In this document: positions 6,640 through 28,325 of the stretch, piece after piece | How positions within the stretch are numbered: the stretch's first letter is position 1 | Layout of the letters: each line of letters starts with the position of its first letter | Assembly: GCA_964584475.1 (NCBI GenBank) | Contig: CAZPAF010000001.1 | Coordinates: 22,094-86,093 of the forward strand | Direction of reading: 5' to 3' | DNA length: 64,000 nucleotides | Source of the DNA: an uncultured Lachnospiraceae bacterium | GTDB lineage: Bacteria > Bacillota > Clostridia > TANB77 > CAG-508 | Position numbers and translations under genes: made by a program | Notes under the pieces: generated by a model | Seen by the model: only the letters and a program-made list of their open reading frames with translations | Told to the model about the DNA's origin: nothing | Databases searched by the model: none

Positions 6640-6656
6640 TTTTTACCTCTACCATT

Positions 6657-8573: not shown

Positions 8574-8585
8574 AATACACCTCTT

Positions 8586-9362
8586 TTAATTTTCTAAACT
8601 TTTTGTCGCTTCATTTCCAACATATTTATATATAGACCAAAATGTTGTATCAGCCATTTTTTCAAACCCATAATCTTCCATTGGTTCTGATAAAACTACT
8701 GGTTTATAATACACAACATAATTTGATTTTGTGTTTATTGCATATGTTGCCACATATTTAACATTTCCAGAATTCATTGCTTGCAAAAGAGGATCATCAC
8801 CGTATCCTTCTGGTCTTCTTCTATATGTTAAATCTATATCTGATGTTATTTGTCTTATATATGGTGTTAAATTTTCTGTAACTAAAGCTTTCTTATTTTC
8901 CAAATTATCAGCTTCTATTAATTGTGCTACTAGAACTGCATCATCTGGTAATTTATAAAGGTTTCCTACTTTTTCAAAGTTATCTTCACTATATACATAT
9001 TCGCCACTTATAATAACTATTGTTAATAAGCAAATTGTTACCAATATTTTTTGAGTTGTTTCTTTTTGTTCTGCAACAAATTTAATAATTGCATATCCGA
9101 TTGTTATTCCTATTGGTAATAACCAATATACTCTCCAGTATACAGATTCTGTAAATATTTTTCCAACAACTTTATTAAATAAAGGATTTAATGTAACAAA
9201 CAAAACAATTAATGGAAAATATATAAATAAGCATTTTTTCTTTTTATTCTCTTCCTTAAAATAAATATATAACATTGCTATGAAAAAAAGTGCTAAATAC
9301 ATTCCTGTACCTTTAAATTCTGCAAATGTATTTTTAATTATTTGAATATTTTCTTGAAACAT
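8586..9362 (-). CDS. Membrane protein with C-terminal extracytoplasmic domain, unknown function
   Basis: About 4 N-terminal TM segments followed by a ~130-aa soluble part. The ATG at 9362 is preceded by GGAGG plus 5 nt (the ORF-track TTG at 9374 is less likely). Confidence 0.55.
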   Translation of the reverse strand: MFQENIQIIKNTFAEFKGTGMYLALFFIAMLYIYFKEENKKKKCLFIYFPLIVLFVTLNPLFNKVVGKIFTESVYWRVYWLLPIGITIGYAIIKFVAEQKETTQKILVTICLLTIVIISGEYVYSEDNFEKVGNLYKLPDDAVLVAQLIEADNLENKKALVTENLTPYIRQITSDIDLTYRRRPEGYGDDPLLQAMNSGNVKYVATYAINTKSNYVVYYKPVVLSEPMEDYGFEKMADTTFWSIYKYVGNEATKSLEN

Positions 9363-9378
9363 TTTTACCTCCAAAGCT

Positions 9379-10458: not shown

Positions 10459-11846
10459 TAAATTTCCTCAACTTTCTCTTGTTTTTCTTCTTTCAAAATT
10501 TCTCTTACGTCACTCTTGTACTTAGTTATATGTCTTCTTCCAATCCTTGCTTCTTTATGTTTTTCTTTTATATTATCGTCTTGTTCTACTTTACTGTTAG
10601 CATGTAATAATGGTATTGTTACAAAAAATATTAAACATAGTGTGTCTGAACATCCTATCGAAAATCTTCCGACACTTTCAAAATACATATAAATCGCATA
10701 TGAAACAAACATCGATAAATATATACTCTTATATTTCCATCCCATTTTACTTCTAAGCATTGTTATAATAATTATTAAATATAAAATAATAAAATATACA
10801 AGTTCTAATATACCACCAGAAACTAAAAATTCTACATATGTATTATGAAATTGTGTTACTCTATATTTTTCTATTAATCTTTCTGCTTTAAATCTTCCTA
10901 TTCCAAAATATGTATTTACATTTGAAAGCAATAATTCTTCTTCTGCTAAGTCCCAGAATTTTGTTCTTCCAGTAAATGTTTCAACTGTATCTAATCTCAA
11001 AATTCTATCCATTAATTCTGGATTATATTCATTTAATTTGTTTACTCCTGTAAATAAACAAACTGTTCCTAGTATACCTACTAGAATTTTAAAAATAAAT
11101 TTAATTTTGTTTGTTAGTAAAAACCACAAAGCAAAAAATATTAATGCAACTGCTGTTCCTGTTCTAGAAAATGTAAGAACCATATTAAACCAAAATAAAA
11201 TAAATGCTAGTCCTAAATATAATTTATACCAAATTTTATTTTTCTTTTGAAATAAAAATACTATAGCAATTATTGATGTTACTAAATACATAGCAAATTG
11301 ATTTTTATGAGCAAAAAAGCTTTTTACAGCCTTTGCTTTTTCTGTTGTTTCTACTAATTTTAAATGAATTAATATATCGTCATAAAATAGAATAATATTT
11401 TGCACACATGCTACAATTCCCATAAGCACAATCAAGTTCATAAAAACATTTAAAGATTTTTCTTCTATCTTTAATCCAAAAATTAAAACATATAATAATA
11501 ATAAATTTACAAATTTACATGCAATATTTGCAAAATCTAAAATTTCATAATCATTATTTCGATATGCGATATATTGAATTATAGTTGATACAGCTGTAAC
11601 TATTAATAATAGTACAAAATTTATAACAACTTCTTTAGTAAATTTTATTTTTTTAATATAATATAATGCTAAAATTACACATTCTATTGCCATCGCTATA
11701 ACCATTGGTTTTACCCCAACAGCAAAAGATTCTTTAGTTTCAATATTTAACTCTATCAATGGAATAAAATTTATTAATATTATTAAAAATAACAAAAATG
11801 GTAATAGATTTTGACTTGTTATTTTTTCTTTTATTTTTTCAAACAT
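10458..11846 (-). CDS. O-antigen ligase/polymerase-like (Wzy_C-type) membrane protein
   Basis: 462 aa and polytopic, with a FSRTGTAVA block plus a large loop with FHNTYVEFLVSGGILE, typical of the O-antigen ligase/polymerase family. Lys/Glu-rich cytoplasmic tail. Confidence 0.7.
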   Translation of the reverse strand: MFEKIKEKITSQNLLPFLLFLIILINFIPLIELNIETKESFAVGVKPMVIAMAIECVILALYYIKKIKFTKEVVINFVLLLIVTAVSTIIQYIAYRNNDYEILDFANIACKFVNLLLLYVLIFGLKIEEKSLNVFMNLIVLMGIVACVQNIILFYDDILIHLKLVETTEKAKAVKSFFAHKNQFAMYLVTSIIAIVFLFQKKNKIWYKLYLGLAFILFWFNMVLTFSRTGTAVALIFFALWFLLTNKIKFIFKILVGILGTVCLFTGVNKLNEYNPELMDRILRLDTVETFTGRTKFWDLAEEELLLSNVNTYFGIGRFKAERLIEKYRVTQFHNTYVEFLVSGGILELVYFIILYLIIIITMLRSKMGWKYKSIYLSMFVSYAIYMYFESVGRFSIGCSDTLCLIFFVTIPLLHANSKVEQDDNIKEKHKEARIGRRHITKYKSDVREILKEEKQEKVEEI

Positions 11847-11849
11847 TTT

Positions 11850-13130
11850 TTATATCTTGTCTCCTTCGTTTTTTAACTTTTCTTCTTTCTTACAACTATT
11901 AGCATGTAATAGTGGAATGGTCACAAAGAAAATTAAACACAATGTATCAGAACTTCCTATTGAAAATCTTCCAAAACTTTCAAAACATATATAAATTGCA
12001 AAAGTAATAAACATTGCTCTATATAGATTTTTATATTTCTTATCCATATCACTTTTAAATACTTTTCTAATTACACTCCAATAAATATATAGAACAAATA
12101 CAAGTTCCATTATTCCACCAGTTATTAAAGAATCTATATAAATATTATGGAACTGTGAAAACGATTTCTTTTCAAATTTTAAAAGTTCAGTTCCTTCAAA
12201 TCTTCCAACTCCAAAAAGTATATTTATTGGACTTTCCTTTAAAAGGTTAATTCCTCTAGCCCAGATATCTGTTCTTCCTGACAAATCTTTGATTCTTTCA
12301 AATCTAACTAATTTTTGGATTAAACTTGGATTAATTTCATTTATAACATACATTATACCAATTAAACAGATTATTCCAAGTACTAATAATATAAATTTTG
12401 TTTTTTTATTTAATTTGTCTGTTAATAAAAAATAAATAAATACAAAAATTCCTACTGCTAAAATTCCAGTTCTAGACATTGTAAAAAATAAATTTACAAA
12501 GAAAAGCGCTAAAAGCAATTTATGTATTAATTTATTTTCTTTTAATATCATAAATAGGTCTGCAATTATAGCAACGTACATAAAAAATGCAAATTGATTT
12601 CTATTTGCGAAAAAACTTTTTATATTAACCATAAATGCACCTTTTTGAAGTCCTAAAGTCTGAAGTATTTCATCAAAATATAAAATCATATTATTTAGAC
12701 AGCCTAAAATACCAAATATAACCATTGCATTCATAAAATATGCAATATATTTTTCTTCACTTTTAGTATTTAATACTGCAATAAATAGCAACAATATATT
12801 AATAAATTGACATGCAATATTTGCAACATCCATTATTTGGTATTCGCCAGTTATAAAGTTTTTAATTTGAATAATAAGTAAAACTAAAGAAACTAGAGAT
12901 AGTACAATTAAGTTTTTTTTCATTTCTTTTGTAAAATCTATTTTTTTAAAAAAATAAAACAAAAGTAAAGTACATTCAATCCCAAAGCAAAACACCATTG
13001 GAATAACTCCAACTCCATGAGATTCTTTACTTATCATATTAGGGATTATTAATGGTATATAATTTATTAATATTATAAAAAATAAAATAATTGGTAAATT
13101 AATTTTATCTTTTATTTTTTCAAAGTTCAT
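11850..13130 (-). CDS. O-antigen ligase/polymerase-like membrane protein (paralog of 10458-11846)
   Basis: Same topology and blocks (MSRTGILAVG; FHNIYIDSLITGGIMEL). The C-terminal GRFSIG(C/S)SDTLCLIFFVTIPLLHANS is nearly identical to the neighbour. Confidence 0.7.
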   Translation of the reverse strand: MNFEKIKDKINLPIILFFIILINYIPLIIPNMISKESHGVGVIPMVFCFGIECTLLLFYFFKKIDFTKEMKKNLIVLSLVSLVLLIIQIKNFITGEYQIMDVANIACQFINILLLFIAVLNTKSEEKYIAYFMNAMVIFGILGCLNNMILYFDEILQTLGLQKGAFMVNIKSFFANRNQFAFFMYVAIIADLFMILKENKLIHKLLLALFFVNLFFTMSRTGILAVGIFVFIYFLLTDKLNKKTKFILLVLGIICLIGIMYVINEINPSLIQKLVRFERIKDLSGRTDIWARGINLLKESPINILFGVGRFEGTELLKFEKKSFSQFHNIYIDSLITGGIMELVFVLYIYWSVIRKVFKSDMDKKYKNLYRAMFITFAIYICFESFGRFSIGSSDTLCLIFFVTIPLLHANSCKKEEKLKNEGDKI

Positions 13131-14363: not shown

Positions 14364-15563
14364 TTATACTTCAATTAATTCTTTTATTTCTCTATAAGTT
14401 CTTGCTCTATCAAATTTTTCTTCTGCTAATTTTCTATTATTTTTTCCAAGACGCTCTCTTAAATTTTCGTCTTTATATAATAGTTCTATTTTTTCTGCAA
14501 GTTCTACTGTATTACCGTTTTCAACATTATATCCTATTTGATAGTCCTCTACTAATTTTCTATACTCTTTAGATTCTTGAGTATTAACAACTGGAAGTCC
14601 TGCTGCTGCATAATCTCCAACTTTATTTATAATACTTCCAGCAGATCCTTTTCTTATTGGATTTACTGCAATTTGACAAGCACATAGTCTTCCTATCATT
14701 TCATCATATGCTAGTCTTCCTGTGAAGTCACAGTTTACTTTTTGTTCTTTTGCATATGCTTCAAAATCTTCTTGAAGTGGCCCATTTCCCATAAGAACAA
14801 ATAAAATATTTTTTATTCCTTTGTCATTTAGAATTTTAATACTATCTATCACACATTTTATATCATAACTACTTCCTAACGTTCCAACATATGCAATTCT
14901 TATTACATCATCATTATGAGTTATTTGATTTTTTTCTTTTGTTTCATCAAATTTTTCTAAATCAGTTCCTAAAAATACGCTTAATTTTTTCTCAAATTTC
15001 TTATTTACAATAGCTGCTCTATTTGCATAAGTTTTAGAAACAGCAACAATACAATTTGCTTTTGAATATATATAATCTGCTTTTTTTTTCATTGGGTAGA
15101 AAATGATATCACTAATTATTGGTATATTAAATACCATCTTAAATGCTTCTGGCCATAAATCTTGTATGTCTATTATAAATTTTATATCATTATTTTCAGC
15201 ATATTTGGCTGCAACTTTTGCAACATCCAAAGATGGCACAGCTGAGTATATTACATCTGGTTTTTCAATTTGTCCTAAATGTTTTTCAACATTTTTAGCA
15301 AATACATGATGTGAATAAAATCTTTTTAAAGAAACATTTTTCTTATATCCTGGTTCATCAATTAATGTTATTTGGTAATCTAATTTCATTTCTTCTGGCT
15401 GTTTTTCTCTTTGTCTTTTATCTCCATGAGAAAAACTAGAAGTCACAAGTTCAACATCATATTTTTCTTTATTAATTAAATCAATTATGTAAGGAAATCT
15501 ACTGTTTCCTTGTTCCCATGGTAATTTAGTAAAATTTGCAATTATTAAAATTTTCTTTTTCAA
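14364..15563 (-). CDS. Glycosyltransferase family 4
   Basis: 399 aa with a C-terminal GT-B block ...AVNPIRKGSAGSIINKVGDYAAAGLPVV... (EX7E-like region). TTG start with AAGGGTG upstream. Confidence 0.8.
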   Translation of the reverse strand: MKKKILIIANFTKLPWEQGNSRFPYIIDLINKEKYDVELVTSSFSHGDKRQREKQPEEMKLDYQITLIDEPGYKKNVSLKRFYSHHVFAKNVEKHLGQIEKPDVIYSAVPSLDVAKVAAKYAENNDIKFIIDIQDLWPEAFKMVFNIPIISDIIFYPMKKKADYIYSKANCIVAVSKTYANRAAIVNKKFEKKLSVFLGTDLEKFDETKEKNQITHNDDVIRIAYVGTLGSSYDIKCVIDSIKILNDKGIKNILFVLMGNGPLQEDFEAYAKEQKVNCDFTGRLAYDEMIGRLCACQIAVNPIRKGSAGSIINKVGDYAAAGLPVVNTQESKEYRKLVEDYQIGYNVENGNTVELAEKIELLYKDENLRERLGKNNRKLAEEKFDRARTYREIKELIEV

Positions 15564-15603: not shown

Positions 15604-16587
15604 TTATTGTTTTCTATATACTGGAAAAAATTGTTCATCTTTATCTATGTTTTTCATTTCACACAATTTATTATATATTTCTTGGTTCCATATTTTTTTG
15701 CCAATATAAAATTCCACATCATAAACCCTAGCAAAATTTTTCTTAAACAAATATAAACTATCTTCTTCACTATTTGAACGCCCACCACCATGATGTATTA
15801 ATTTATATCCGTTTTTTATTCCCCATTCTGCAATAGCATATCTTAAAATATAAGCTGGAGATAAGAATAAATATTCATTTAAAGTTCCTGATAAGTGTAT
15901 GTGAATAATATCTTTATAAATAAAATATAATCCTGCTGCTATTGTTTTCCCTTCAAAATAGGCTTCTATTAAAACTAAATTTTCTTTATAATATTTTAAA
16001 ATATCATTAAAATATTCATCATCAAAATAATAATAATCTGTTGCATTATTTCTGTCCATTGTTGAATAATATATTTCTTTAAAAGAACCTATTGAATCAG
16101 GGCTCATTGTTACTTTGTAACTTACTCCTCTATTTAATGCTTGTCTTATATTTTTTCTTGCACTTTTTCCAAATTGATTTGTTATTGGATCGTCTTCATC
16201 AAGTTTTGTAATTAAAGTTTTTCTCATATACTGAGCATTATACATTTTTTCAAAATCTTCATAATTTTTTACAATTGGATGAAATCTTACAAATTCACTA
16301 ACAATATCATTTTCTATACAATATTTAGCAAATTCTTTTTCGAAATTTTCTAATAATTTTTCTTTATTATTTGCAAATTCAATTACTGGTCCACCATATC
16401 CATATGGAGTTACTAAATCATAGTACACTTTTCCATCAATTTTTTCTGGTATTTTTCTTTTTAAAAATTGATTTGTAATTTTTCCATTTTCGTCTTCATA
16501 CGTAAAAATTTGTGCAATTCCATTCTCTATTTTTTCATATAATTTTCCATAATTTTCATCAAAATATAAATCTATTGCTTCTTTCAA
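15604..16587 (-). CDS. FemAB-like (aminoacyl-tRNA-dependent peptidyl/aminoacyl transferase fold) protein
   Basis: 327 aa with two GNAT-like halves. The C-terminal block LIHHGGGRSNSEEDSLYLFKKNFA is typical of FemAB/BioF2-like acetyltransferase-fold proteins. TTG start with AAGGGGA upstream. Confidence 0.6.
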   Translation of the reverse strand: MKEAIDLYFDENYGKLYEKIENGIAQIFTYEDENGKITNQFLKRKIPEKIDGKVYYDLVTPYGYGGPVIEFANNKEKLLENFEKEFAKYCIENDIVSEFVRFHPIVKNYEDFEKMYNAQYMRKTLITKLDEDDPITNQFGKSARKNIRQALNRGVSYKVTMSPDSIGSFKEIYYSTMDRNNATDYYYFDDEYFNDILKYYKENLVLIEAYFEGKTIAAGLYFIYKDIIHIHLSGTLNEYLFLSPAYILRYAIAEWGIKNGYKLIHHGGGRSNSEEDSLYLFKKNFARVYDVEFYIGKKIWNQEIYNKLCEMKNIDKDEQFFPVYRKQ

Positions 16588-16599
16588 AATTATCCCCTT

Positions 16600-17643
16600 T
16601 TATTTATTAAAATAATTGATTATTAAATTTATATATTCTTCTGTTTGTTCTTTTCTATATCTTTGGTCGCATACTAAAGATAATTCTTTGTCAAAAATAT
16701 TATTTATTTTTTCATCTAGTGGCCAATGTATTGGTAAATATATATTTTTGCTAATCAAATAATTTCTTAGATCATTTCTTATTTCGTTTTTTACTAATAT
16801 TGGAACAAACAACAAACAATCATTTTCATCATAATTGTCCACTAAAAAGCGAATTTCTAAAATGTTTTTTAATTTTTCATATATTGTTTTTACATTTTCT
16901 TTTCTTTGATTTTTAATTTTTTCTAAATCAATTCCCATAATTATTTCAAAAGATTTTTCATCCATTAAATAATCTTTATAATCATTTTCTAAAATTTTAT
17001 TGCTTTCATTGTATTGATTTAAAAACTCTTCTTTTGAACCATCTTTATTTTCAATATATAATTTTTTATTTTGCATTGCTTTAGTTTTTGCATTTATTAA
17101 TTCTTCATTTTGTCTATCTTTAAGCTCAAGTTCAAATTTTGAATTCATTGCCACAGCTAAAGCACCACTACTTACTGGAAACCATTTTCTTAAACTTCCA
17201 ACTAAATAATCTGAATACTGGCTATATCTTTTTTCACTTAAAACAGAATGAGTAATATCTTCTATTACTATTTTTCCTTTTTCTTTAAATTTTTTAATAT
17301 ATTCTTCCATATTAGTCTCAGAATATCCAAAATAATTCATTGAAAAAAAGATGTCACATTCTTCTTCAAAATCTATATTGTATTTTAATCCTTCATTATA
17401 ATAAACATCATAATATTCTACTTCTATTCCTAAATCATCAAATGCTTGTACCATTGAAGCGCAAGAATAAGATGGCATATAAACTTTTTGAACATTTTGT
17501 TTTAATAATATATTTTTTAAAACATAATAAATAGAAGTTCTTCCTGATAAAGTAAATTTTACATCTTGTCCTATATTCCAAAATTCCCTATTATCACTAT
17601 TTAATTCTCCATCAAATTCCCAATATTCGCTTCCTATTTCCAT
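16600..17643 (-). CDS. PLP-dependent aminotransferase-fold protein (DegT/DnrJ/EryC1-like), tentative
   Basis: SGRTSIYYVLKNI...PSYSCASMVQAF...IEDITHS...GSLRKWFPVSSG (candidate Schiff-base Lys). The similarity is weak by eye. Confidence 0.45.
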   Translation of the reverse strand: MEIGSEYWEFDGELNSDNREFWNIGQDVKFTLSGRTSIYYVLKNILLKQNVQKVYMPSYSCASMVQAFDDLGIEVEYYDVYYNEGLKYNIDFEEECDIFFSMNYFGYSETNMEEYIKKFKEKGKIVIEDITHSVLSEKRYSQYSDYLVGSLRKWFPVSSGALAVAMNSKFELELKDRQNEELINAKTKAMQNKKLYIENKDGSKEEFLNQYNESNKILENDYKDYLMDEKSFEIIMGIDLEKIKNQRKENVKTIYEKLKNILEIRFLVDNYDENDCLLFVPILVKNEIRNDLRNYLISKNIYLPIHWPLDEKINNIFDKELSLVCDQRYRKEQTEEYINLIINYFNK

Positions 17644-17687
17644 TATTTTTCCTTATAACTTTTTTATTATTTATATTATATTATATT

Positions 17688-18446
17688 TTAATTTCTATTT
17701 ATTTTATAAATTCTATATTCTGAATCAACTTCATAACCTAATTTTTCTGCTAATCCTACTGAATCTAAATTTGCAGCATCCCAACTTGGGTACTTTTTTT
17801 GTTTTAAACACTCTAAAATCATGTTTGCTCCAAGCACTGTTCCTAAACCTTTATGTCTGTCTTGTTCTTCAATTTTTATATTAATTTCTAGACCATCATC
17901 ATATATTCCATTTGAAACAATAACTGCTATAATTTCATCATTTATATTTTTAGCACAAAATCCAATTCCATATTTTTCGAAGTTATCGCTCATTGTTATA
18001 TTGCAAGCAAAAGAATTTATTTCTTTAATTAGTTTATAATTATTTTCATCTATCTTTTCAATTTTATATCCATCACTTATTTTTAAAGAAAGTTCTTCTA
18101 ATTTTTCTTTATCAAATTTTGTATCCTTTTTTATAGAATATCTTTTATCTATTTCATATCTATCTTTATAGACCTCTTCTATAAGTTCATACCAATTTTC
18201 ATTTGCTATAATTGTTTTATAATAATCATCTAGTTCCATAAGATCTTGTTTTGCATTTTTACCATCTGGATTTCCATCTAAAAAACAAAATCTTCCAAGC
18301 AAAACAATAGCAAATTCAGGATTTTCTATATTATCAACAAAAACTTGTCCCATATATCCTTGAAGAGCAGACCTTGTCATATAAAACTTTATTTCTTTAA
18401 AAAACTTTTGACTTAAACTTAAGTTTCCATTTTCTAGTTTTATCAT
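17688..18446 (-). CDS. GNAT family N-acetyltransferase (ZmaR-like two-domain type)
   Basis: C-terminal HKGLGTVLGANMILECLKQKKYPSWDAANLDSVGLAEKLGYE is a typical GNAT acetyl-CoA / C-terminal block. Confidence 0.7.
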   Translation of the reverse strand: MIKLENGNLSLSQKFFKEIKFYMTRSALQGYMGQVFVDNIENPEFAIVLLGRFCFLDGNPDGKNAKQDLMELDDYYKTIIANENWYELIEEVYKDRYEIDKRYSIKKDTKFDKEKLEELSLKISDGYKIEKIDENNYKLIKEINSFACNITMSDNFEKYGIGFCAKNINDEIIAVIVSNGIYDDGLEINIKIEEQDRHKGLGTVLGANMILECLKQKKYPSWDAANLDSVGLAEKLGYEVDSEYRIYKINRN

Positions 18447-18469
18447 TTAAATTATATATTCCTTTCTAT

Positions 18470-19735
18470 TTAAGCTTTCCAATCTATCAATGCTTCAACA
18501 GAATTTGTAGAAAAACAATATATATTTTTATTTTTTCTTAGTTCATTTTTTAAAGTTTCATTATTTGATATAAATATTTCTTTTTTACTTACAACTTCTT
18601 TAAATTTTTCAAAATTTATCACTTTTGAAAAGATATTTTTATTTAATTTCTTTTCTTCTAATAATAAATCAATTTTTTCTTCATTTTTTGTAACTAATAT
18701 AATTTCTTTATTTTGGTTAATACATTGATATATGTACATCATTAAAAGTGTATTAATTATTTTTATATTTTCAAAGCAAGATTCAAAGTCTATATATACA
18801 GTATCATATTTTATATCCATTATAAATTTAGAGAAAAATTGTTTATCCACTTCAACATTTATATCATTAAAAATAATTTCTACATCTTGTCCATCAAAAT
18901 CTTTTAATGCCATAAGTGGTAGATTAACATCTAAACTTTTATTTAGAGCAAATGCTCCTGCAAGTCTTGTTGCAATTTCTAATAATTTATATTTTCCATT
19001 TTTATCTTTTTTTATTTGGAAAAACCAAAATCCTCTAAACTTAATTTCTTTATTTAAACTTTCCGCAATATATTTTATTTCTTCTGATAATTCTATTCTT
19101 CTTGCATGAACATCAATTCCTGCAAGCATTCTATCAGCGGCTCTTGGATTACAATATAATAATTTTCCTTCTTTATTTGTAAAACAATCTATTGTAACTT
19201 CTTCTCCCGGCAGATATTCACAAATTATCATATTTTCTATTAAAGAATATATTTCTAACTCTTCTTTATTTGTAACTTTATAAGCATTTCTTCCGCCTTG
19301 GTCTGTATCTTTTTTTATAAATACAGGAAACTCTTTTACTTCTTCTTTTTTGAAAATTTTAGGAATAAAATCATATTCTTTCATTTTTTCATAAGTCTTT
19401 GATTTATATCTACAAAGAAGTGCTGTTTCATATCCTGAACATACTATTGTTGCATTTATCTCATCTTTATGTTCTTGCATGAAAAGAGCTAAATCTTCAT
19501 GTGGAGCTAAAATAAATTTAAAATCATATTCTTCAATTTTTTGATTTAAAATTTCTATAAAATTTTCATCACTAATATTAGGAATATCTTCTATATAATT
19601 TTCATAGACATATATTCCATGATTTTTATTAGTAGATGCTCCCCATATTTCAAATTCATCATTGTATCTTAATGACATATTTATATCAGTTGATGCTAGT
19701 GTTCCACAATTTAATATTAATACTCTTTTTTTCAT
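18470..19735 (-). CDS. ATP-grasp domain ligase with extra C-terminal domain
   Basis: The N-terminal ~300 aa has ATP-grasp organisation (KKRVLILNCG...; FPVFIKKDTDQGGRNAYKV; ICEYLPGEEVTIDCF; LEIATRLAG). The last ~120 aa are unassigned. Confidence 0.65.
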   Translation of the reverse strand: MKKRVLILNCGTLASTDINMSLRYNDEFEIWGASTNKNHGIYVYENYIEDIPNISDENFIEILNQKIEEYDFKFILAPHEDLALFMQEHKDEINATIVCSGYETALLCRYKSKTYEKMKEYDFIPKIFKKEEVKEFPVFIKKDTDQGGRNAYKVTNKEELEIYSLIENMIICEYLPGEEVTIDCFTNKEGKLLYCNPRAADRMLAGIDVHARRIELSEEIKYIAESLNKEIKFRGFWFFQIKKDKNGKYKLLEIATRLAGAFALNKSLDVNLPLMALKDFDGQDVEIIFNDINVEVDKQFFSKFIMDIKYDTVYIDFESCFENIKIINTLLMMYIYQCINQNKEIILVTKNEEKIDLLLEEKKLNKNIFSKVINFEKFKEVVSKKEIFISNNETLKNELRKNKNIYCFSTNSVEALIDWKA

Positions 19736-20377
19736 TTAATTTTTCCCTTTATTTTCTTCTAATTGTTTTTTTCTATACTCATCAAAATCTATCGTTTTTC
19801 CTGTTCCTCTAGTTACAACTCCATCTCTTTTAAATACTTTATAAACTGTTTTAAATAAAATTTTCAAATCATTTATAAAAGTAATATTTTCAACATACTC
19901 AATGTCGTAGGCAAATCTTTCTTCCCAATTTAAAGCATTTCTACCATTAATTTGAGCAAGGCCAGTTAACCCTGGTCTTACTGAATGTCTTTTCTTTTCT
20001 TCTTCATTGTAATAAGGTAAATAACAAACAGCCAGTGGTCTTGGACCAATTAAACTCATTTCACCTTTTAAGATATTTACAAGTTCTGGAAGTTCATCTA
20101 AACTTGTCGCTCTTAAAATCTTACCAAACTTTGTTAGTCTTTCTGAATCTGGTAATAGTTTTCCATTTTCATCTTTTTTATCAGACATACTTCTAAATTT
20201 ATAAAGCTTAAATATTTTTTCATCTTTTCCTGGACGCTCTTGTTTGAATATTACTGGACTTCCAAATTTTATTCTAACTAATATTGCTACTATTAACATT
20301 ACTGGTGATAAAATGATTAAAGCTGTTGAACTTATCACAATATCTAATAATCTTTTAATATATTTTTTGTACATCAT
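19736..20377 (-). CDS. Initiating phosphoglycosyl transferase (bacterial sugar transferase, PglC/WbaP C-terminal type)
   Basis: One N-terminal TM, then PVIFKQERPGKDEKIFKLYKFRSM...DELPELVNILKGEMSLIGPRP. The start is ambiguous (TTG 20386, ATG 20377 or 20374). Confidence 0.9.
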   Translation of the reverse strand: MMYKKYIKRLLDIVISSTALIILSPVMLIVAILVRIKFGSPVIFKQERPGKDEKIFKLYKFRSMSDKKDENGKLLPDSERLTKFGKILRATSLDELPELVNILKGEMSLIGPRPLAVCYLPYYNEEEKKRHSVRPGLTGLAQINGRNALNWEERFAYDIEYVENITFINDLKILFKTVYKVFKRDGVVTRGTGKTIDFDEYRKKQLEENKGKN

Positions 20378-20410
20378 TTTCTCCAAAATAGGTATTTCTT
20401 ATATTATTTT

Positions 20411-21535
20411 CTAAAATAATTTTTTTATAATATTAATTACTCTCTCTAAATCTTCTTCAGTCATTTTTGTATCAGATGGAAGACAAACTCCTCTATTAAA
20501 TAGATCTTCTCCAACACTAATTCCAGATTCATTTTCATTTATAAAATCATATTTTTCAAATACTGGTTGCAAATGCATTGGTTTCCATACTGGTCTTGAT
20601 TCTATATTTTCTTTTTCTAAAGCAAGAATTATATCTAATGGTTTTACTTTAGAATTTTCTTTTAAAGTCATTGCAGATAGCCATTGGTTAGATCTTTCAT
20701 TTTCGTTTTCTGGCATCATTTCAATGTCTTCAATATCCTTAAAAGCTTCTTTATATTTTTCAAAAATTTCATTTTTCTTAGATATTCTGTCTTCTAGAAC
20801 TTTCATTTGCCCTCTACCAATTCCAGCTAAAACATTGCTCATTCTGTAATTATATCCTATTTCTGAATGTTGATAATGACGAGCTGGATCTTTACTTTGA
20901 GTTGACCAAAATCTTACTTTGTTTGCCATTTCTTCATCATTTGAAACAAACATTCCTCCACCTGTTGTTGTAATTATTTTATTTCCGTTAAATGAAAGTG
21001 CACTACATGTCCCATAAGTTCCAAGATATTTTCCTTCATAAATTGTTCCAAGTCCTTCTGCAGCATCTTCTAAAATTGGAACATTATGCTCTTCGCATAT
21101 TTTTACAATTTCTTTCATATTAGCAGCTCTACCATATAGATGAACAACCACAACTGCTTTTGGAGTATATTTTTCAAATGCCTTTCTTAAAGCTTTTGGA
21201 CTCATATTCCAAGTTCCATATTCTGAATCAATAAATACAGGTTTTGCACTTTCATAAACAATTGGATTTACACTCGCAGAAAATGTTAAATCTGATACAA
21301 AAACAATATCATCTTTTTGTACTCCAAGAGCTTTTAAACCAAGATGAATTGCTGATGTTCCACTTCCTAAAGCAACTACTGCTTTTACTCCTAAATAATC
21401 TTTTACAGCTTTTTCAAATTCATTTATATTTTCTCCAACTGTTGAAAGCCAATTAGTATCAAAAGCTTCTTTTACATATTTTTCTTCGAATTTTTCATCT
21501 GACATATGAGGTGATGCTAAATATATTTTTTTCAT
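20411..21535 (-). CDS. DegT/DnrJ/EryC1-family sugar aminotransferase (PglE-like)
   Basis: 374 aa with GSGTSAIHLGL, a DAAEGLG motif, and SFNGNKIITTTGGGM containing the PLP lysine. Confidence 0.9.
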   Translation of the reverse strand: MKKIYLASPHMSDEKFEEKYVKEAFDTNWLSTVGENINEFEKAVKDYLGVKAVVALGSGTSAIHLGLKALGVQKDDIVFVSDLTFSASVNPIVYESAKPVFIDSEYGTWNMSPKALRKAFEKYTPKAVVVVHLYGRAANMKEIVKICEEHNVPILEDAAEGLGTIYEGKYLGTYGTCSALSFNGNKIITTTGGGMFVSNDEEMANKVRFWSTQSKDPARHYQHSEIGYNYRMSNVLAGIGRGQMKVLEDRISKKNEIFEKYKEAFKDIEDIEMMPENENERSNQWLSAMTLKENSKVKPLDIILALEKENIESRPVWKPMHLQPVFEKYDFINENESGISVGEDLFNRGVCLPSDTKMTEEDLERVINIIKKLF

Positions 21536-21538
21536 AAA

Positions 21539-23449
21539 CTATTCCTCTTTTCTTTTATTCACTTCTTCTGGTTCTTTATATGTTGGAACTACATCTTTCA
21601 TAATTTGTTTTACATCTTTTAATTTTACTTTATCTTCTTCAAGATTTAATATTTCATTAAATTTTGAAAGTTTTGTTTCAACATCATTCATTGTTATATC
21701 TAAAGGCTCTGCTACAAATATTTTATTATGTGCAGTTTTCTCCAAGCCTTCTTCTCCCATTAGAAGTTCTTCGTAAAGTTTTTCTCCTGGTCTTAACCCT
21801 GTAACTTTTATTTCTATATCTTCATTTGGTACTAATCCAGAAAGTTTTATTAAGCTTTCTGCCAAATCATAAATCTTAACAGGCTCTCCCATATCTAAAA
21901 CAAATATTTCTCCACCTGCCGCATAAGTCATAGCTTGAAGTACAAGTTCTACAGCTTCAGGAATTGTCATAAAAAATCTTGTTATTTCTTTATGAGTTAC
22001 TGTAACTGGTCCACCATCCGCTATTTGTTTTTTAAATAGTGGTACAACAGAACCGTTGCTTCCTAAAACATTTCCAAAACGTACTGCTGCAAATTCTGTT
22101 TTTGATTCTTTATTTTTTGCTTGAACAATCATTTCACAAATACGTTTTGTTGCTCCCATTATATTTGTTGGGTTAACAGCTTTGTCTGTTGATATAAGGA
22201 TAAAACGTTTTACTTTATATTTATCACTTGCATTTACTACATTATAAGTTCCAAAAACATTATTTTTTATAGCTTCTAATGGACTTTTTTCCATTAATGG
22301 TACATGTTTGTGTGCAGCTGCATGAAATACTAAATAAGGATTATATTTTTCAAAAATACTTTCTAATCTTTTTTTATCTCTTACACTTGCTACAATGGCT
22401 TCAATTTTTAATTTTGGATATTTGGATTTTAATTCTTGCTCTATATCATACAAATTGTTTTCATAAATATCTAATATTACAAGTTTTTCTGGTTTATATT
22501 TTGCAATTTGACGACAAAGTTCAGAACCAATTGAACCACCGCCACCTGTAACTAAAATAACTTTATTTTTTATTAAACATTCAATGTTTTTATTATCTAA
22601 TTTTATAGGATTTCTTCCTAGTAAATCTTCGATTTCAACATCTCTTAAATTTTCAAATAATTGTTTATTTTTAACAATTTCTCTTAAACCTGGAAGAACT
22701 CTAACTTTTACTTTTGTCGACTGACAAATATTTAAAATTTGCTTTTTATTTTCATTATCTATATTTGCAATAGAAAAATAAATTAAATCCACATCATTAT
22801 TTTTGCAAATTTCTGGTATATCATTTCTTTTTCCAATAATTTTAACTCCAGAAACTGTAAATCCTTGTCTTTTTACATTGTCATCTATAATACCAACAAT
22901 ATTATATTTGTCTTGCATATTCATTTGAATTGTATTTATGATTTCATGAGAAGCATTTCCCGCACCTATAATTAATAGATTTTTTCTATTTTCTTTATTT
23001 ACTATAAGTCCTTTGTTTACTACATCAGCAATTAACATATATCTAGCAATTATTCTATAAGAAACCATCATAATTCCTATAAAAATACCAGCTAAAATAT
23101 TTAATTTTGCAGTTGCAATATGAAGATGGAATATTTCTCTTATTATTGAGACAATTATTGATGATATTATTGATAATGCTAAATAACTAACATAGTCTTT
23201 GGAATTTTCATATCTTATAATTTGTTTATATTTTTTTGTTAAATGAAATACAATTTGATAAACAATTATAGAAAGTCCTATTGTTCCTTTCAGTCTATTT
23301 GCATAATATGAAGAAATATCAAACAATGTGTCTTCTGATACTAATAAAACTCCTAAAAAATAAGCTATAGCAATACATAATATATCTGTTGCTATTAATA
23401 TAATATTTCTAAATTTACTTAATTTTTTTAAAAATTTAAATTTTTTCAC
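21539..23449 (-). CDS. Membrane-anchored UDP-HexNAc 4,6-dehydratase (CapD/PglF family)
   Basis: 636 aa with 4 N-terminal TM segments, two Rossmann motifs (LLIIGAGNAS; VTGGGGSIGSEL) and STDKAVNPTNIMGATKR. GTG start with AAGGAAA upstream. Confidence 0.9.
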   Translation of the reverse strand: MKKFKFLKKLSKFRNIILIATDILCIAIAYFLGVLLVSEDTLFDISSYYANRLKGTIGLSIIVYQIVFHLTKKYKQIIRYENSKDYVSYLALSIISSIIVSIIREIFHLHIATAKLNILAGIFIGIMMVSYRIIARYMLIADVVNKGLIVNKENRKNLLIIGAGNASHEIINTIQMNMQDKYNIVGIIDDNVKRQGFTVSGVKIIGKRNDIPEICKNNDVDLIYFSIANIDNENKKQILNICQSTKVKVRVLPGLREIVKNKQLFENLRDVEIEDLLGRNPIKLDNKNIECLIKNKVILVTGGGGSIGSELCRQIAKYKPEKLVILDIYENNLYDIEQELKSKYPKLKIEAIVASVRDKKRLESIFEKYNPYLVFHAAAHKHVPLMEKSPLEAIKNNVFGTYNVVNASDKYKVKRFILISTDKAVNPTNIMGATKRICEMIVQAKNKESKTEFAAVRFGNVLGSNGSVVPLFKKQIADGGPVTVTHKEITRFFMTIPEAVELVLQAMTYAAGGEIFVLDMGEPVKIYDLAESLIKLSGLVPNEDIEIKVTGLRPGEKLYEELLMGEEGLEKTAHNKIFVAEPLDITMNDVETKLSKFNEILNLEEDKVKLKDVKQIMKDVVPTYKEPEEVNKRKEE

Positions 23450-23610: not shown

Positions 23611-24582
23611 TTATTTCATTAAATATTCTGGATGTGCTAAATACCAATCTATAGTTTTAACAATACCATCTTTAAACATTGTTTTTGGTTCCCAACCAAA
23701 TTCTTCTTTTAATTTTGTAGGATCGATTGCATATCTGTAATCATGTCCTTTTCTGTCTTCAACATAAGAGATTAAAGATTCTGGTTTTCCTAATCTTTCT
23801 AATATTAATTTAACGATTTCTATATTTCTTTTTTCGTTGTGTCCACCAATATTGTATCTTTCACCTTTTCTTCCTTGGTGTAATACAATATCAATAGCTT
23901 CACAGTGATCTTCAACAAATAACCAATCTCTGATGTTTAATCCTTGTCCATAAACTGGTAATTGTTCATCTTTTAATGCTTTTGAAATCATATGTGGTAT
24001 TAATTTTTCATGATGTTGATATGGTCCGTAGTTATTTGAACAGTTTGTCACTGTTACATTCATTTTATATGTTTCGCAATAAGCTAAAGCTATTAAATCT
24101 GATCCAGCTTTTGATGATGAATATGGGCTGTTTGGTTGAATTGGAGATTTTTCTGTGAAATATCCTGTTTCTCCTAATGTTCCATAAACTTCATCTGTAG
24201 AAACGTGAACAAATTTATTTTCACTTCCTTCTCCCCAGAATAGTTTAGCAGCTTCTAATAAAGTATGTGTTCCAATTACATTTGTTTGTGTAAATACAAA
24301 TGGATTTTTGATACTGTTATCAACATGTGATTCAGCAGCAAAGTGAACAACTGCGTCTATATCATATTTTTTGTATGTTTCTTTTACAAATTCAAAATCA
24401 CAAATATCACCTTGTACAAATGTTATTTTGTCCTTTATATTATCTAAGTTATGTAGATTTCCTGCATAAGTTAATTTATCAAATACAATTATATTGTATT
24501 TTCCTTCATATTTTTTTACCATTAATTCAGCAAAATTTGCTCCTATAAATCCTGCTGCTCCTGTTACTAAAATGTTTTTCAT
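23611..24582 (-). CDS. rfbB: dTDP-glucose 4,6-dehydratase
   Basis: ILVTGAAGFIGANF, STDEVYG, YSSSKAGSD; 323 aa. Confidence 0.95.
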   Translation of the reverse strand: MKNILVTGAAGFIGANFAELMVKKYEGKYNIIVFDKLTYAGNLHNLDNIKDKITFVQGDICDFEFVKETYKKYDIDAVVHFAAESHVDNSIKNPFVFTQTNVIGTHTLLEAAKLFWGEGSENKFVHVSTDEVYGTLGETGYFTEKSPIQPNSPYSSSKAGSDLIALAYCETYKMNVTVTNCSNNYGPYQHHEKLIPHMISKALKDEQLPVYGQGLNIRDWLFVEDHCEAIDIVLHQGRKGERYNIGGHNEKRNIEIVKLILERLGKPESLISYVEDRKGHDYRYAIDPTKLKEEFGWEPKTMFKDGIVKTIDWYLAHPEYLMK

Positions 24583-24595
24583 TTTCTTTCCCCTT

Positions 24596-25180
24596 TTATT
24601 TTAAATTTTGAAATAAATCTGTGTTTTTTAATTCTGCTAAACTTGGCCATTTTCCATCTTTTTCAGATGTTAAATATTCTTCTGGGCTCATTCCAGGAAC
24701 TTCTGGCCATACAATTCCAACATCTGGATCATTCCATTTTAATCCACCTTCTCCAGCATGGTTATATACATCATCACATTTATAAGCGAATTCAGCTTCT
24801 TCTGATAATACTAAGAATCCATGAGCAAATCCTCTAGGAATCATAAACATTTTTTTGTTTTCTTCTGAAAGAATAACTCCTTCCCATTTTCCATAAGTTT
24901 CACTTCCTGGTCTTAAATCAACTGCAACATCAAAAACTTCACCTTTTATACATCTAACTAGTTTTGCTTGAGTATTTTCTTTTTGGAAATGTAATCCTCT
25001 TAAAACACCTTTTTTTGATTTAGATTGATTATCTTGAACAAATTCGTTTGTTATTCCTATTTCTTCAAAATCATTTTTGCTATATGTTTCCATAAAATAT
25101 CCTCTATTATCACCGAAAACAGTAGGTTCTATAACATATACACCTTTGATTGAAGTATCAATTCTTGTAAATTTACCCAT
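24596..25180 (-). CDS. rfbC: dTDP-4-dehydrorhamnose 3,5-epimerase
   Basis: GVYVIEPTVFGDNRGYF, GVLRGLHFQ. Start placed at the ATG at 25180 (MGKFTRI..., GAAAGGAAG upstream) rather than the extended ORF-track start at 25255. Confidence 0.9.
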   Translation of the reverse strand: MGKFTRIDTSIKGVYVIEPTVFGDNRGYFMETYSKNDFEEIGITNEFVQDNQSKSKKGVLRGLHFQKENTQAKLVRCIKGEVFDVAVDLRPGSETYGKWEGVILSEENKKMFMIPRGFAHGFLVLSEEAEFAYKCDDVYNHAGEGGLKWNDPDVGIVWPEVPGMSPEEYLTSEKDGKWPSLAELKNTDLFQNLK

Positions 25181-25332
25181 TTTATTCTTCCTTTCAAAAT
25201 TGATTTTATTTAATATTTTCTTCTTTTTTATATCAAAAAAATTAATATATTTCAAGTCCCATTTACAGCAATTAAGCTGTAAAATCTATTTTCATTTACA
25301 GCCTAATCACTTCTCTTTATTAATTTCTTCAA

Positions 25333-26250
25333 TTAATTTGCATTAAATAAATCACTTTCGTAAATATCTTTATATTGTTTAAAATCTTGTTCTGCAACTC
25401 TTTTTAAATATTTTCCGTATTCTGTTTTTTTGTATTTTTCGGCTTCTCCTAAAAGTTGTTCTTTAGTAATCCATTCATTTTTATAAGCAATTTCTTCTAA
25501 GCAAGCAATTTGAACACCTTGTCTTAATTCTATAGCTTTAACATAATCTGAAGCATCAGCAAGTCTATCTGCAGAACCTGTATCAAACCAAGCATATCCT
25601 TTTCCTAAAGGAATAACTTGTAGTTTTCCTTTTTCCATATATGTTTTATTAACATCTGTTATTTCTAGTTCTCCTCTTGGAGATGGTTTTATTGATTTTG
25701 CAATTTGTACAACTTCATTATCATAGAAATAAATTCCTGGTACAGCAAAATGAGATTTTGGATGTTCTGGTTTTTCTTCTATAGAAAGGGCTTTTCCTGT
25801 TGAATCAATTTCAACAACACCATAAGATGTTGGATCTGCTACTTGATATCCAAATATAATTCCACCTTCTTTTAATTTACTAGCTGCTTTTAAAACTCTT
25901 TCAACTCTTGATCCGTAAATCATATTGTCTCCTAAGATTAAAGCAACATTATCATCACCTATAAAATCTGCACCTAAAATAAATGCATCAGCTAGTCCAA
26001 CTGGTTTTTCTTGAACTTTATATTCAAATTTCATACCAAATCTTGAACCATCACCTAATAAACTTTCAAATGCTGGTAAGTGAACTGGTGTAGATATAAT
26101 TAATACTTCTTTTATACCAGCCATCATTAATGTTGATAATGGATAATAAATCATTGGTTTATCATATACTGGTAACATTTGTTTTGAAACTGCTAAAGTA
26201 ATTGGATAAAGTCTTGTAGCACTTCCTCCTGCTAAAATAATTCCTTTCAT
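25333..26250 (-). CDS. rfbA: Glucose-1-phosphate thymidylyltransferase
   Basis: [18 protein letters not shown]..., GLADAF, LGDN. The ATG at 26250 overlaps the rfbD stop as TAATG. The ORF-track extension to 26295 is rejected. Confidence 0.95.
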
Positions 26251-27110
26251 TATTTTAATTCCTCCTTTAAATATTCTTCTAAAGCTACTTCCCACGCTTC
26301 AGGTATTATTCCTACATTTTTTAATTTTTCTTTTGATAATTGGCTATTTGAAGGTCTATCACTTGATTGTGGATACATCTCTTTATATTCTTTCGAAGTT
26401 ATAGCTTTAACATTTGTAGATATATTTGCTAGTTCAAATATTTTTCTTGTAAATCTGCACCATGTTGTAAATCCTTCATTTGTTGAATGATATACTCCAT
26501 ATTCTGGTTCTTTTTCCATAATTGACTCGATTATTTTGCAAAGTGTAGTTGTAGATGTTGGACTTCCATGTTGATCATCAACTACAGTTAATTCATCTCT
26601 ATCTTGTGATAATCTAAGCATTGTTTTTACAAAGTTTTTTCCACCTAATCCATAAAGCCAAGCTGTTCTTAAAATATAATATTTTTCAGCTTTTGCTGCA
26701 TTTTCTTCACCAACAAGTTTTGTTCTTCCATAAGCACTTACAGGCTCAGGTTTCATATCCTCTGTATAAATTTGGTCTACTGGTAAATTTCCTGGAAATA
26801 CATAATCTGTACTAATATGTATAAATGTAGCATCTTGTGTTTTAGCAGCTTCTGCAATATTAGCTACCGCTGTTCCATTAACAGCCATTGCTAAATCTGT
26901 ATTTACTTCGCATCCATCAACATTTGTGTATGCTGCACAATTTATTATAAAATATGGTTTTACTTCTTCTGCTTTAGCTAAAACTGCATCTTTATCTGTT
27001 ATGTCTAATGTTTCTAAAGTTGTTCCTGTTACATCATAGATTTTTTCTAATCTTTCTTTTAATTCACCGCCAAGCATTCCATCTGCTCCGATTAATAAAA
27101 CTTTTTTCAT
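26250..27110 (-). CDS. rfbD: dTDP-4-dehydrorhamnose reductase
   Basis: [25 protein letters not shown]; 286 aa. Confidence 0.9.
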
Positions 27111-27260: not shown

Positions 27261-28325
27261 CTATATAAAAAGCAATGCAGGAATTCCGCTCAATGCAGAA
27301 AATATTGTCAATAAAATCAAGAATATTTTTTGATAATTTTTATCTAAATAATTTAAAAACAAAAATGTTAATAATGTAAGTTCAGCCGCAAATAAATATA
27401 AAAATTTAAGCCCTGAAAATTGTGTTGGATATTTTATGAAAGCTAAAATACAAATTGAAATTACTGTAAATCTCATTTGATGACTTAATCTAAATGAAAA
27501 GTCTTTTACATTTCCTAAAAAATAGAAAATCACAAATAGATTAGCAAGTTGTACCGCAGGAACTACTCTTACAGCACTAACTTCTGATAACATTGTAAAT
27601 TTATTTATTATCTCTGGAAATCCCGAAATACAATAAACTGTTTCAAAAACAGTTACTATTGTAATTGGTAATAAAAATTCAGAATGTTCTTCTTTTTTAT
27701 ACATATAATATAAAGCTATGCACATTGGAATTGGAAATATTGAAGCAATTCCAGCCCATATATCTGGATTGCTTACATCATTAAAGGCAAGCAGTGGTGT
27801 ATACAAGTATGTGAATATTCCTGATATTCCCGCTGTCATATTATATTCAATATAATCTTTATAAACATTTCCAAAAAATACTTCTGCACATATTGCTCCA
27901 ATAATACTTAAACCAATAGTTAAACAAATTATTATTGTTTTAGATTTATTCGCTTTTATTTCTTTTATATTTTTTACTATTAACCAAACTATTAATGACA
28001 AAAATACATATCCGAAACTTATTGCAAAAGGTCTAAATGTATACATATAAACAACGCTAGATGCAATTATTATTAACATCATAGGAATTATTTTTTTATA
28101 ACTTTTTTCTTCTATGATTTTATGAATCAAAACTGTTATTAAACTTCCTAATACAATCGAATCGATTTTATCTAAATTCCACATCACACAACCAGAAAAA
28201 GCCAGAACCAAAGTTCCAGCTATTGACATCTTTTTATTCTTATTTGTGATTATAGAAAAAAGTTCAAAACTTGTAAAAACTAACGCTATAAATTTTACAA
28301 CAAGCCATACTACTTCTAATTTCAT
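27261..28325 (-). CDS. Polytopic membrane protein, unknown function
   Basis: 354 aa with about 10 hydrophobic segments. No recognisable motif. Confidence 0.5.
   Translation of the reverse strand: MKLEVVWLVVKFIALVFTSFELFSIITNKNKKMSIAGTLVLAFSGCVMWNLDKIDSIVLGSLITVLIHKIIEEKSYKKIIPMMLIIIASSVVYMYTFRPFAISFGYVFLSLIVWLIVKNIKEIKANKSKTIIICLTIGLSIIGAICAEVFFGNVYKDYIEYNMTAGISGIFTYLYTPLLAFNDVSNPDIWAGIASIFPIPMCIALYYMYKKEEHSEFLLPITIVTVFETVYCISGFPEIINKFTMLSEVSAVRVVPAVQLANLFVIFYFLGNVKDFSFRLSHQMRFTVISICILAFIKYPTQFSGLKFLYLFAAELTLLTFLFLNYLDKNYQKIFLILLTIFSALSGIPALLFI

Follow-up and report, generated by a model that had tools for sequence, protein, structure and literature searches.

A bacillosamine-type priming operon with candidate amino-acid ligases and a divergent PLP-enzyme family in an uncultured Lachnospiraceae bacterium

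What is attached to the free amine of a bacillosamine-type sugar when the operon that builds the sugar encodes no PglD-type acetyltransferase? The question is raised by seven co-directional minus-strand genes, read from position 23449 to 15604, in a 64,000-nucleotide stretch of DNA from an uncultured Lachnospiraceae bacterium (the window; GenBank assembly GCA_964584475.1, contig CAZPAF010000001.1, positions 22,094 to 86,093). In order, the genes encode relatives of the sugar-nucleotide enzymes PglF and PglE, the phosphoglycosyl transferase (PGT) PglC, an ATP-grasp ligase, a GNAT acyltransferase, a pyridoxal phosphate (PLP) fold protein, here termed PLPx, and a Fem-type protein (Table 1). An earlier reading of the letters and their translations, made without database searches (the sequence-only reading), proposed that the sugar is N-acylated with one or more amino acids and possibly capped by acetylation. 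The finding is real and more general than that reading held. Amino-acid N-acylation of a bacillosamine-type primer is still the best account of the operon, unproven and with about an even chance of being correct.

Profile searches of Pfam and NCBIfam, the check proposed in the sequence-only reading, confirm all seven genes at these positions and uphold the families assigned to them. Matches to Polysacc_synt_2, DegT_DnrJ_EryC1 and Bac_transf support the PglF-like, PglE-like and PglC-like calls. The best NCBIfam match of the PglE-like protein is to the LegC family (5e-115; 384 bits, under the cut-off of 420), and the start of pglC is likelier to be the ATG at 20377, as originally chosen, than the alternative at 20386. 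Among the open reading frames (ORFs) scanned between 276 and 33689, no PglD-type acetyltransferase (PglD_N plus hexapeptide β-helix) was found, and the only Hexapep protein is GlmU-like. The operon lacks a PglD-type enzyme, as claimed, but this absence is not in itself anomalous: GNATs can do the job of PglD, the small GNAT of related loci is PseH-like, and both GNAT types occur fused to PglC. In the Campylobacter jejuni Pgl pathway, where PglF, PglE, PglD and PglC yield UDP-diNAc-bacillosamine, a PglF-type membrane dehydratase, a DegT aminotransferase and a small monotopic PGT likewise share one operon and are followed by a glycosyltransferase family 4 (GT4) enzyme. Unlike that pathway, the present operon has ATP-grasp, GNAT, PLPx and Fem proteins instead of the β-helix PglD, and its product would feed a Wzx/Wzy polymer in a Gram-positive wall-polysaccharide locus instead of an N-glycan.

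No gap separates pglC, whose stop lies at 19736, from the ATP-grasp gene, which begins at 19735. An AlphaFold2 (AF2) model of the protein has a predicted local distance difference test score (pLDDT) of 91, and Foldseek matched residues 1–~300 to 2pn1 (1.6e-16), GAR synthetase, PylC and L-amino-acid ligases (~1e-16 to 1e-15). The fold is that of a three-domain ATP-grasp enzyme, in which K141 (phosphate-binding), E173 (hinge) and E253 are invariant within the subfamily. The C-terminal domain of ~120 residues is modelled as a Rossmann-like β-α-β unit with neither a Pfam match nor a PDB match by sequence; an invariant D316 ends its first strand, and the +2 position is variable. An ATP-grasp protein with an unassigned C-terminal domain, as first described, is borne out by ATPgrasp_Ter and Foldseek, and the 421-aa protein does not belong to an unrelated fold. 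A HAD phosphatase was rejected for the C-terminal domain, which has no DxDx(T/V) motif and no Pfam, PDB or profile support; a single member matched Hydrolase_6 at E 0.24, and no HAD match was meaningful. Outside the closest Clostridia this Ter-type ATP-grasp is almost absent; one further related locus (L075) has a copy of 39% identity.

A precedent for an ATP-grasp enzyme at this position comes from Neisseria meningitidis PglB2, a PGT fused to an ATP-grasp domain, which yields the N4-glyceroyl sugar glyceramido-acetamido-trideoxyhexose (GATDH) and stands in place of the PGT/acetyltransferase PglB (PMC11130364). The likeness is one of architecture: in both systems an ATP-grasp enzyme takes the place of an acetyltransferase beside the PGT of a bacillosamine-type pathway, and in one relative the two are fused as in PglB2 (P0201). 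The present system differs in its separate genes, in its Ter/PRK12767-type ATP-grasp with an extra C-terminal domain and an atypical metal site, and in the presence of Fem, PLPx and GNAT alongside.

In addition to its FemAB and Acetyltransf_6 matches, the Fem-type protein matches NCBIfam FemX (9e-13) and, at low identity, the FemX structure 1xf8 (2.6e-7); the family matches are under the equivalog cut-offs. The FemX catalytic lysine (K305) and the aromatic residue before it are kept (SLYLFKKNF here vs SLYVFKHVF in FemX), and the lysine is at least 90% conserved among 49 orthologues. The FemAB-like call is sustained by these matches and by the lysine, and the 327-aa protein, too, is not of an unrelated fold. 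A 3.6-kb Logan contig was the sole place where this exact protein turned up. Weissella viridescens FemX shares the double-GNAT fold and the F-K catalytic motif and acts on a UDP-linked acceptor. Similarly, the Fem-like Orf11 of the BD-12 (streptothricin-type) pathway aminoacylates an amino-sugar amine from Gly-tRNA (PMC12945691). Whereas these enzymes serve peptidoglycan precursors or an antibiotic, the acceptor predicted here is a nucleotide-linked or lipid-linked sugar of a surface glycan.

The third acyl-transfer enzyme was correctly recognised as a ZmaR-like GNAT (PF12746, 4.6e-61). It is an accessory component: it is present in L012, L017, L022, L040 and L046, fused to PglC in L018, and absent from L006–L011 and L014–L015. 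Its dispensability in close relatives agrees with a role as a terminal cap.

PLPx is the least familiar member of the set. It has no Pfam match (including PF01041 above threshold) and no NCBIfam match, a single-sequence PDB search gave nothing useful, and members of its family are labelled 'hypothetical protein' in RefSeq. A profile built from an alignment of 27 homologues matches WecE and HCAN_0200, and the AF2 model (pLDDT 92) matches WecE (8e-13), PseC, DesV, QdtB and NtdA in Foldseek at ~1e-12. An hhalign comparison with the profile of the PglE found at such loci is colinear over 280 columns and places K153 on the Schiff-base lysine and D129 on the cofactor (pyridine-N) aspartate; both residues, and the motif ELSLxCDQRY, are invariant in the 27-homologue alignment. 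The sequence-only reading had called this protein a second enzyme of aminotransferase fold, and the model and hhalign results uphold that fold despite the want of any family match; the reading had left its role unexplained, although it is the most tightly linked component.

Compared with the DegT/DnrJ/EryC1 aminotransferases (WecE, PseC, PglE), PLPx shares the fold, the Schiff-base lysine and the cofactor aspartate. It differs in being shorter and under the Pfam and NCBIfam thresholds, in having invariant YxxYxxD and CDQRY in place of NYR and 'CLPS', and in generally accompanying a canonical PglE instead of substituting for it. Of 53 related loci with a visible PglF, 51 carry both PLPx and PglE (the exceptions are L043 and the truncated L064), which rules out PLPx as a plain replacement for PglE. 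A second feed of dTDP-4-keto-6-deoxyhexose for PLPx was also rejected as a general explanation: rml-like genes are absent in 53 of 74 related loci, though rmlA-D lie just upstream here.

To place these genes in context, 185,579 species genomes were scanned with the PLPx profile, yielding 80 loci, whose ORFs were labelled by BLAST, with the window proteins and neighbours typed by Pfam as references; adjacency was counted in the 70 evaluable loci. PLPx directly adjoins Fem or an ATP-grasp gene in 64 of them, and one or the other lies within four genes of PLPx in 68; PglC lies within four genes in 63. Fem and ATP-grasp occur together in 27 of the 70 loci, and an acetyltransferase is present in 30. 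The recurrent layout is PglF-PglE-PglC-[slot A]-PLPx-[Fem or a ~370-aa PRK12767-type ATP-grasp]-GT4-Wzx-Wzy. Slot A may hold a small PseH-like GNAT, a ZmaR-type GNAT, a PglD_N protein (L001), a Ter-type ATP-grasp, or an ATP-grasp_4 ligase with a short-chain dehydrogenase/reductase or an opine-dehydrogenase-like protein, or it may be empty. In Bacilli, Fem is followed by an L-amino-acid-ligase-like ATP-grasp, and the extra ATP-grasps of relatives are likewise L-amino-acid-ligase-like (BacD, DdaF, PylC and Ddl matches).

Because this synteny is kept in dozens of genomes, the gene arrangement is not a product of chance. The core cassette occurs in Clostridia, Bacilli, Erysipelotrichales, Saccharibacteria, Bacteroidales and Synergistaceae; it is common in gut Clostridia, and its carriers include Thomasclavelia ramosa, Longibaculum (L. 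muris), Gracilibacillus alcaliphilus and Terribacillus saccharophilus. An exhaustive search with the PLPx profile returned 1078 clusters at 50% identity (E <= 1e-30). The view that the system is unusual for a clostridial-type organism does not survive this distribution, given how widespread the core is across phyla.

Natural fusions tie the components more closely. Among the best 150 PLPx representatives there are four two-domain proteins, and all four are PglC::PLPx fusions (P0396, P0408, P0414 and P0488), with Fem and ATP-grasp again as neighbours where the context can be read. PglC is also fused to the Ter-type ATP-grasp in one relative (P0201), to the ZmaR-type GNAT in L018 (7378-8763) and to the small PseH-like GNAT in L020 (8769-10004). 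PglC is therefore naturally joined to four partners, which amount to 'Rosetta stone' links. Because each is found fused to PglC, the ZmaR-type GNAT, the PseH-like GNAT, the Ter-type ATP-grasp and PLPx would all act on the substrate of PglC. The constant pairing of PLPx with a ligase implies one of two roles, supplying the amine that becomes acylated or editing what the ligase has made. The exclusive fusion of PLPx with PglC, its near-universal co-occurrence with PglE and the presence of a GalE-like donor gene are more in line with one sugar that PLPx would edit.

The proposed product of the operon is a lipid-linked primer, on which a Wzx/Wzy-type side polymer of the cell-wall polysaccharide would be made. 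From what is known of their families, the PglF-like and PglE-like enzymes would convert UDP-HexNAc into UDP-2-acetamido-4-amino-2,4,6-trideoxyhexose. Domain content, synteny and fusions suggest that the free amine would then receive an amide-linked amino-acid or short-peptide substituent from two mechanistically distinct ligases: the FemX-like protein, with an aminoacyl-tRNA donor, and the ATP-grasp, which would consume ATP and a free carboxylic acid; that acid could be an amino acid or a hydroxy acid, the latter as for PglB2. Acetylation of the last terminal amine may fall to the ZmaR-type GNAT, which varies between strains. PLPx would act on the same sugar, which is the least certain step; the favoured, speculative role is editing of the amine-bearing centre used or made by the ligase, perhaps with either the sugar-linked aminoacyl group or C4 itself being epimerised or transaminated. 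PglC would transfer the finished sugar-phosphate to undecaprenyl phosphate, GT4 would add a second sugar, and the unit would be flipped and polymerised or ligated. As to the original proposal, the comparative data strengthen the part that places amide-forming enzymes on an amino sugar, among them the L-amino-acid-ligase-like ATP-grasps and the opine-dehydrogenase-like gene of relatives; the part on amino acids is overstated, as the acid used by the ATP-grasp may be a non-amino acid.

Several observations count against this proposal. The chemistry assigned to every member of the cassette is a prediction from sequences and models. Of the three canonical metal ligands, the Ter-type ATP-grasp subfamily keeps only one: Q240 stands where D/E is expected and A/S255 replaces the N of E-x-N, on a moderately secure mapping from the 2pn1 alignment and predicted strands. 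Its catalytic competence is not certain, and its acid substrate may not be an amino acid. The small GNAT of the commonest relatives is PseH-like (TIGR03585, 3e-20; 72.9 bits, under the cut-off of 93.1), and the GNATs joined to PglC recall Neisseria PglB; N4 may therefore carry no more than an acetyl group, in which case PLPx and Fem would act on a different amine. L043 encodes PglF, PLPx, Fem and PglC with no PglE within 21 kb, which suggests that PLPx can itself be a sugar aminotransferase, and editing of an aminoacyl group is not known for any DegT-family enzyme. No dedicated or linked tRNA genes were found that might point to the amino acid.

Some of these points can be accommodated if two amines on two sugars are involved, a possible but somewhat unlikely scheme. 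PglF, PglE and the acyl-transfer enzyme of slot A (in relatives a PseH-like GNAT, PglD or an ATP-grasp; in this operon the ATP-grasp, alone or together with the GNAT) would provide PglC with a classical N4-acylated primer. PLPx would then be a second genuine sugar aminotransferase that uses the same 4-keto intermediate, perhaps to form the C4 epimer. This second amine would be aminoacylated by Fem or, in relatives, by the 370-aa ATP-grasp, and GT4 would transfer the second sugar. The modular order of the loci, with PglF-PglE-PglC-slot A followed by PLPx-Fem/ATP-grasp-GT4, reads naturally in this way, as do the simpler gnat-, Bacilli- and ATP-grasp-type loci, which hold one amide-forming enzyme per aminotransferase. 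PLPx keeps its lysine and aspartate, has nucleotide-sugar aminotransferases as its nearest structures and is the sole aminotransferase of L043, and the small GNAT is PseH-like. However, all four PLPx fusions are with PglC and none with GT4 or Fem, and a repeat composed solely of 2,4-diamino-trideoxyhexoses would be unusual. The conserved GalE-like epimerase suggests an ordinary UDP-Gal(NAc) donor for GT4, and a second dehydratase is missing in most loci, 53 of 74 having no rml-like gene. A GNAT acting as a non-orthologous PglD substitute is a serious rival to amino-acid N-acylation. As a full account, in which the product is ordinary diNAc-bacillosamine or, with the ATP-grasp adding a hydroxy acid such as glycerate, a PglB2-like glyceramido sugar, no amino acid is on the sugar, and PLPx and Fem serve some other substrate, it is judged unlikely. 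PglC::GNAT fusions do mirror Neisseria PglB and PglB2 is a precedent for a non-amino-acid substrate (PMC11130364), and a PglD_N protein occupies the same slot in L001; yet close relatives with neither GNAT nor PglD retain the ATP-grasp, PLPx and Fem. Moreover, Fem and PLPx sit, co-transcribed, between pglC and the GT4 gene, are linked with PglC across phyla both as neighbours and through fusions, and have no alternative acceptor pathway encoded in the operon.

The C. jejuni HS:2 capsule offers a different model, since its Cj1435-Cj1438 proteins comprise a PLP transaminase, a PLP decarboxylase, an ATP-dependent amidoligase and a HAD phosphatase (PMC11800397). By analogy, serinol phosphate, ethanolamine phosphate or a similar small amine would come from the PLP enzyme here and be coupled to a sugar carboxylate by the ATP-grasp, and the C-terminal domain would be a phosphatase. 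Both are polysaccharide loci with PLP enzymes and an ATP-dependent amidoligase for an amide-linked sugar substituent, the enzyme set matches that of a characterised system, and the Rossmann/HAD-like β-α-β form of the C-terminal domain, with an invariant Asp ending its first strand, is suggestive. In HS:2, however, the sugar (GlcA) gives the carboxylate and the PLP enzymes make the small amine, whereas here the sugar is predicted to give the amine. Such a uronamide scheme is very unlikely because the window ORFs scanned include neither a UDP-sugar 6-dehydrogenase nor any other gene for uronic acids, and uronic-acid amidation was rejected on that ground. The C-terminal domain also lacks a DxD motif and any meaningful HAD match, and the partner of PLPx is mostly Fem, which needs an amine acceptor, not a carboxylate. 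Finally, N4 might be left unacylated, giving a zwitterionic glycan with a free-amine sugar (AATGal or bacillosamine-4N). Free N4 amines occur in pneumococcal teichoic acid and in Bacteroides fragilis PSA, and a dehydratase, an aminotransferase and a PGT without PglD are a known gene set for such sugars. This is hardly probable here, where the genes between pglC and the next glycosyltransferase, which are conserved there, encode three acyl-transfer enzymes and a PLP enzyme.

N-Aminoacyl and N-peptidyl amino sugars are chemically known in bacterial surface polysaccharides; the enzymes that install their amino acids have mostly not been assigned. No published account of a cassette combining FemAB, ATP-grasp and bacillosamine genes was found in the literature searched. 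The cassette is most aptly classed as a bacillosamine-type priming pathway that varies in having an alternative, amino-acid-type N-acylation and an uncharacterised DegT-derived PLP family. It offers concrete candidates: a tRNA-dependent Fem-type transferase acting on a glycan precursor, ATP-grasps fused or adjacent to a PGT, and an unnamed PLP family. More tentatively, a PLPx-Fem or PLPx-ATP-grasp pair tied to a priming PGT may be a widespread, unrecognised route by which glycans of Firmicutes, Bacteroidales, Saccharibacteria and others receive amino acids from aminoacyl-tRNA, with PLPx as a new DegT-derived editing activity and not a plain keto-sugar aminotransferase. The resulting glycans, charged or carrying peptides, could be of consequence for recognition by the host immune system and for phage receptors. 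If Fem does draw on aminoacyl-tRNA, it would add a further link between translation and the envelope, besides peptidoglycan bridges and lipid aminoacylation.

The operon is larger than the seven genes first noted. With intergenic gaps of 0-44 nt, and flanked by hairpins and a promoter-like site, it comprises 14 minus-strand genes over ~16 kb (~23530-7570), in the order PglF, PglE, PglC, ATP-grasp, GNAT, PLPx, Fem, GT4, Wzx-like, two Wzy_C, DUF6077, small membrane protein and GalE-like. It is a Wzx/Wzy module with a single glycosyltransferase beyond the primer, set inside an ABC-transporter rhamnan-type locus. In most related loci GT4 directly follows Fem or ATP-grasp, and it probably adds the second sugar to the Und-PP-linked primer. 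The polytopic protein that comes next, in the same position behind GT4 in many phyla, is probably a Wzx-like flippase of divergent sequence; neither this protein nor the 262-aa membrane protein has a Pfam match. DUF6077, the 262-aa protein and the GalE-like epimerase form a block that is kept in close relatives.

Table 1. Features of the operon and of the surrounding polysaccharide locus (positions in the window).
Feature	Position	Strand	Evidence or remark
PglF-like membrane-anchored UDP-HexNAc 4,6-dehydratase, 636 aa	21539-23449	-	Polysacc_synt_2 6.4e-129, CoA_binding_3 1.2e-12, N-terminal transmembrane (TM) segments
PglE/LegC-like sugar 4-aminotransferase, 374 aa	20411-21535	-	DegT_DnrJ_EryC1 6.2e-102
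PglC-like small monotopic phosphoglycosyl transferase	19736-20386	-	Bac_transf 2e-65, one TM/re-entrant segment
ATP-grasp ligase (residues 1-~300) with C-terminal domain (~300-421), 421 aa	18470-19735	-	ATPgrasp_Ter 1.7e-18, PRK12767 1e-22
ZmaR-type GNAT N-acyltransferase, 252 aa	17688-18446	-	GNAT_acetyltran PF12746 4.6e-61, PDB 3g3s 3e-33
PLPx, divergent DegT-lineage fold-type-I PLP enzyme, 347 aa	16600-17643	-	AF2/Foldseek, hhalign
FemX-like double-GNAT aminoacyl-tRNA-dependent transferase (predicted), 327 aa	15604-16587	-	FemAB PF02388 2.3e-13, Acetyltransf_6 PF13480 2.1e-10
GT4 glycosyltransferase	14364-15563	-	Glycos_transf_1 1.3e-20
Polytopic membrane protein, 414 aa	13130-14374	-	Nine hydrophobic stretches, several long enough for two TM helices
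Wzy_C membrane proteins, polymerase or ligase-like	11850-13130 and 10458-11846	-	Wzy_C 7e-17 and 8e-11
DUF6077 membrane protein	9379-10458	-	Distal operon gene
262-aa membrane protein	8586-9374	-	Distal operon gene
GalE-like epimerase	7578-8573	-	Distal operon gene
Terminator-like hairpin	23601-23578	-	After upstream rmlB-like gene; consensus match only
Sigma-70-like promoter match, TTGAAA-17-TAAAAT with TG	23530-23502	-	Before pglF, likely operon start; consensus match only
Hairpin	7553-7579	-	After last operon gene
rmlA-D	23611-27110	-	Same polysaccharide locus, just upstream of operon
Wzm/Wzt ABC exporter with Wzt_C domain	4352-7451	-	Same locus
Large GT2 proteins	693-2633, 5680-6639	-	Same locus
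DUF7657 protein	27261-28325	-	Same locus
GlmU-like protein, NTP_transferase and hexapeptide β-helix	28348-29625	-	Same locus

The seven genes first noted lie in the middle of a single large minus-strand envelope-polysaccharide locus (~700-29600), a dual-pathway wall-polysaccharide locus (693-29625) that encloses the whole operon. Its layout recalls the rhamnan-plus-side-polymer loci of lactic acid bacteria, and the GlmU-like protein supplies its only β-helix acyltransferase-type domain. The window is very AT-rich (GC ~25%), its genes have metagenome-assembled genomes of gut Clostridia as their nearest relatives, and the host is a spore-former, with SpoIVA (49876-51354) and GerAC (55056-56198) encoded in the window.

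Related loci show further genes within or near the cassette. In a 57%-related cassette (L001), a radical-SAM/SPASM protein and a 211-aa protein are encoded between PglF and PglE (4498-6215), and the PglD_N protein lies between PglC and the ATP-grasp (8075-8722); L006 likewise carries a radical-SAM gene. A small Big_14 (bacterial Ig-like) protein is encoded between pglE and pglC in L005 (6049-6573), L007 (7250-7780) and L008 (7254-7796), and Acyl_transf_3 fragments lie between pglC and the ATP-grasp gene in L009 and L011. Near PLPx are an HpcH/HpaI aldolase and an Ldh_2 dehydrogenase in L043 (14810-17343), a TIM-barrel C-C bond lyase (PF15617) in L059 (14309-15448) and an opine-dehydrogenase-like protein in L050 (8570-9652). 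These enzymes of keto- and hydroxy-acid metabolism hint at non-proteinogenic acyl groups. Elsewhere in the window, five ORFs of 370-568 aa have no Pfam match, one at E <= 0.001 (2643-4277) and four at E <= 1e-5 (35385-36554, 41940-43646, 48297-49817 and 56989-58101).

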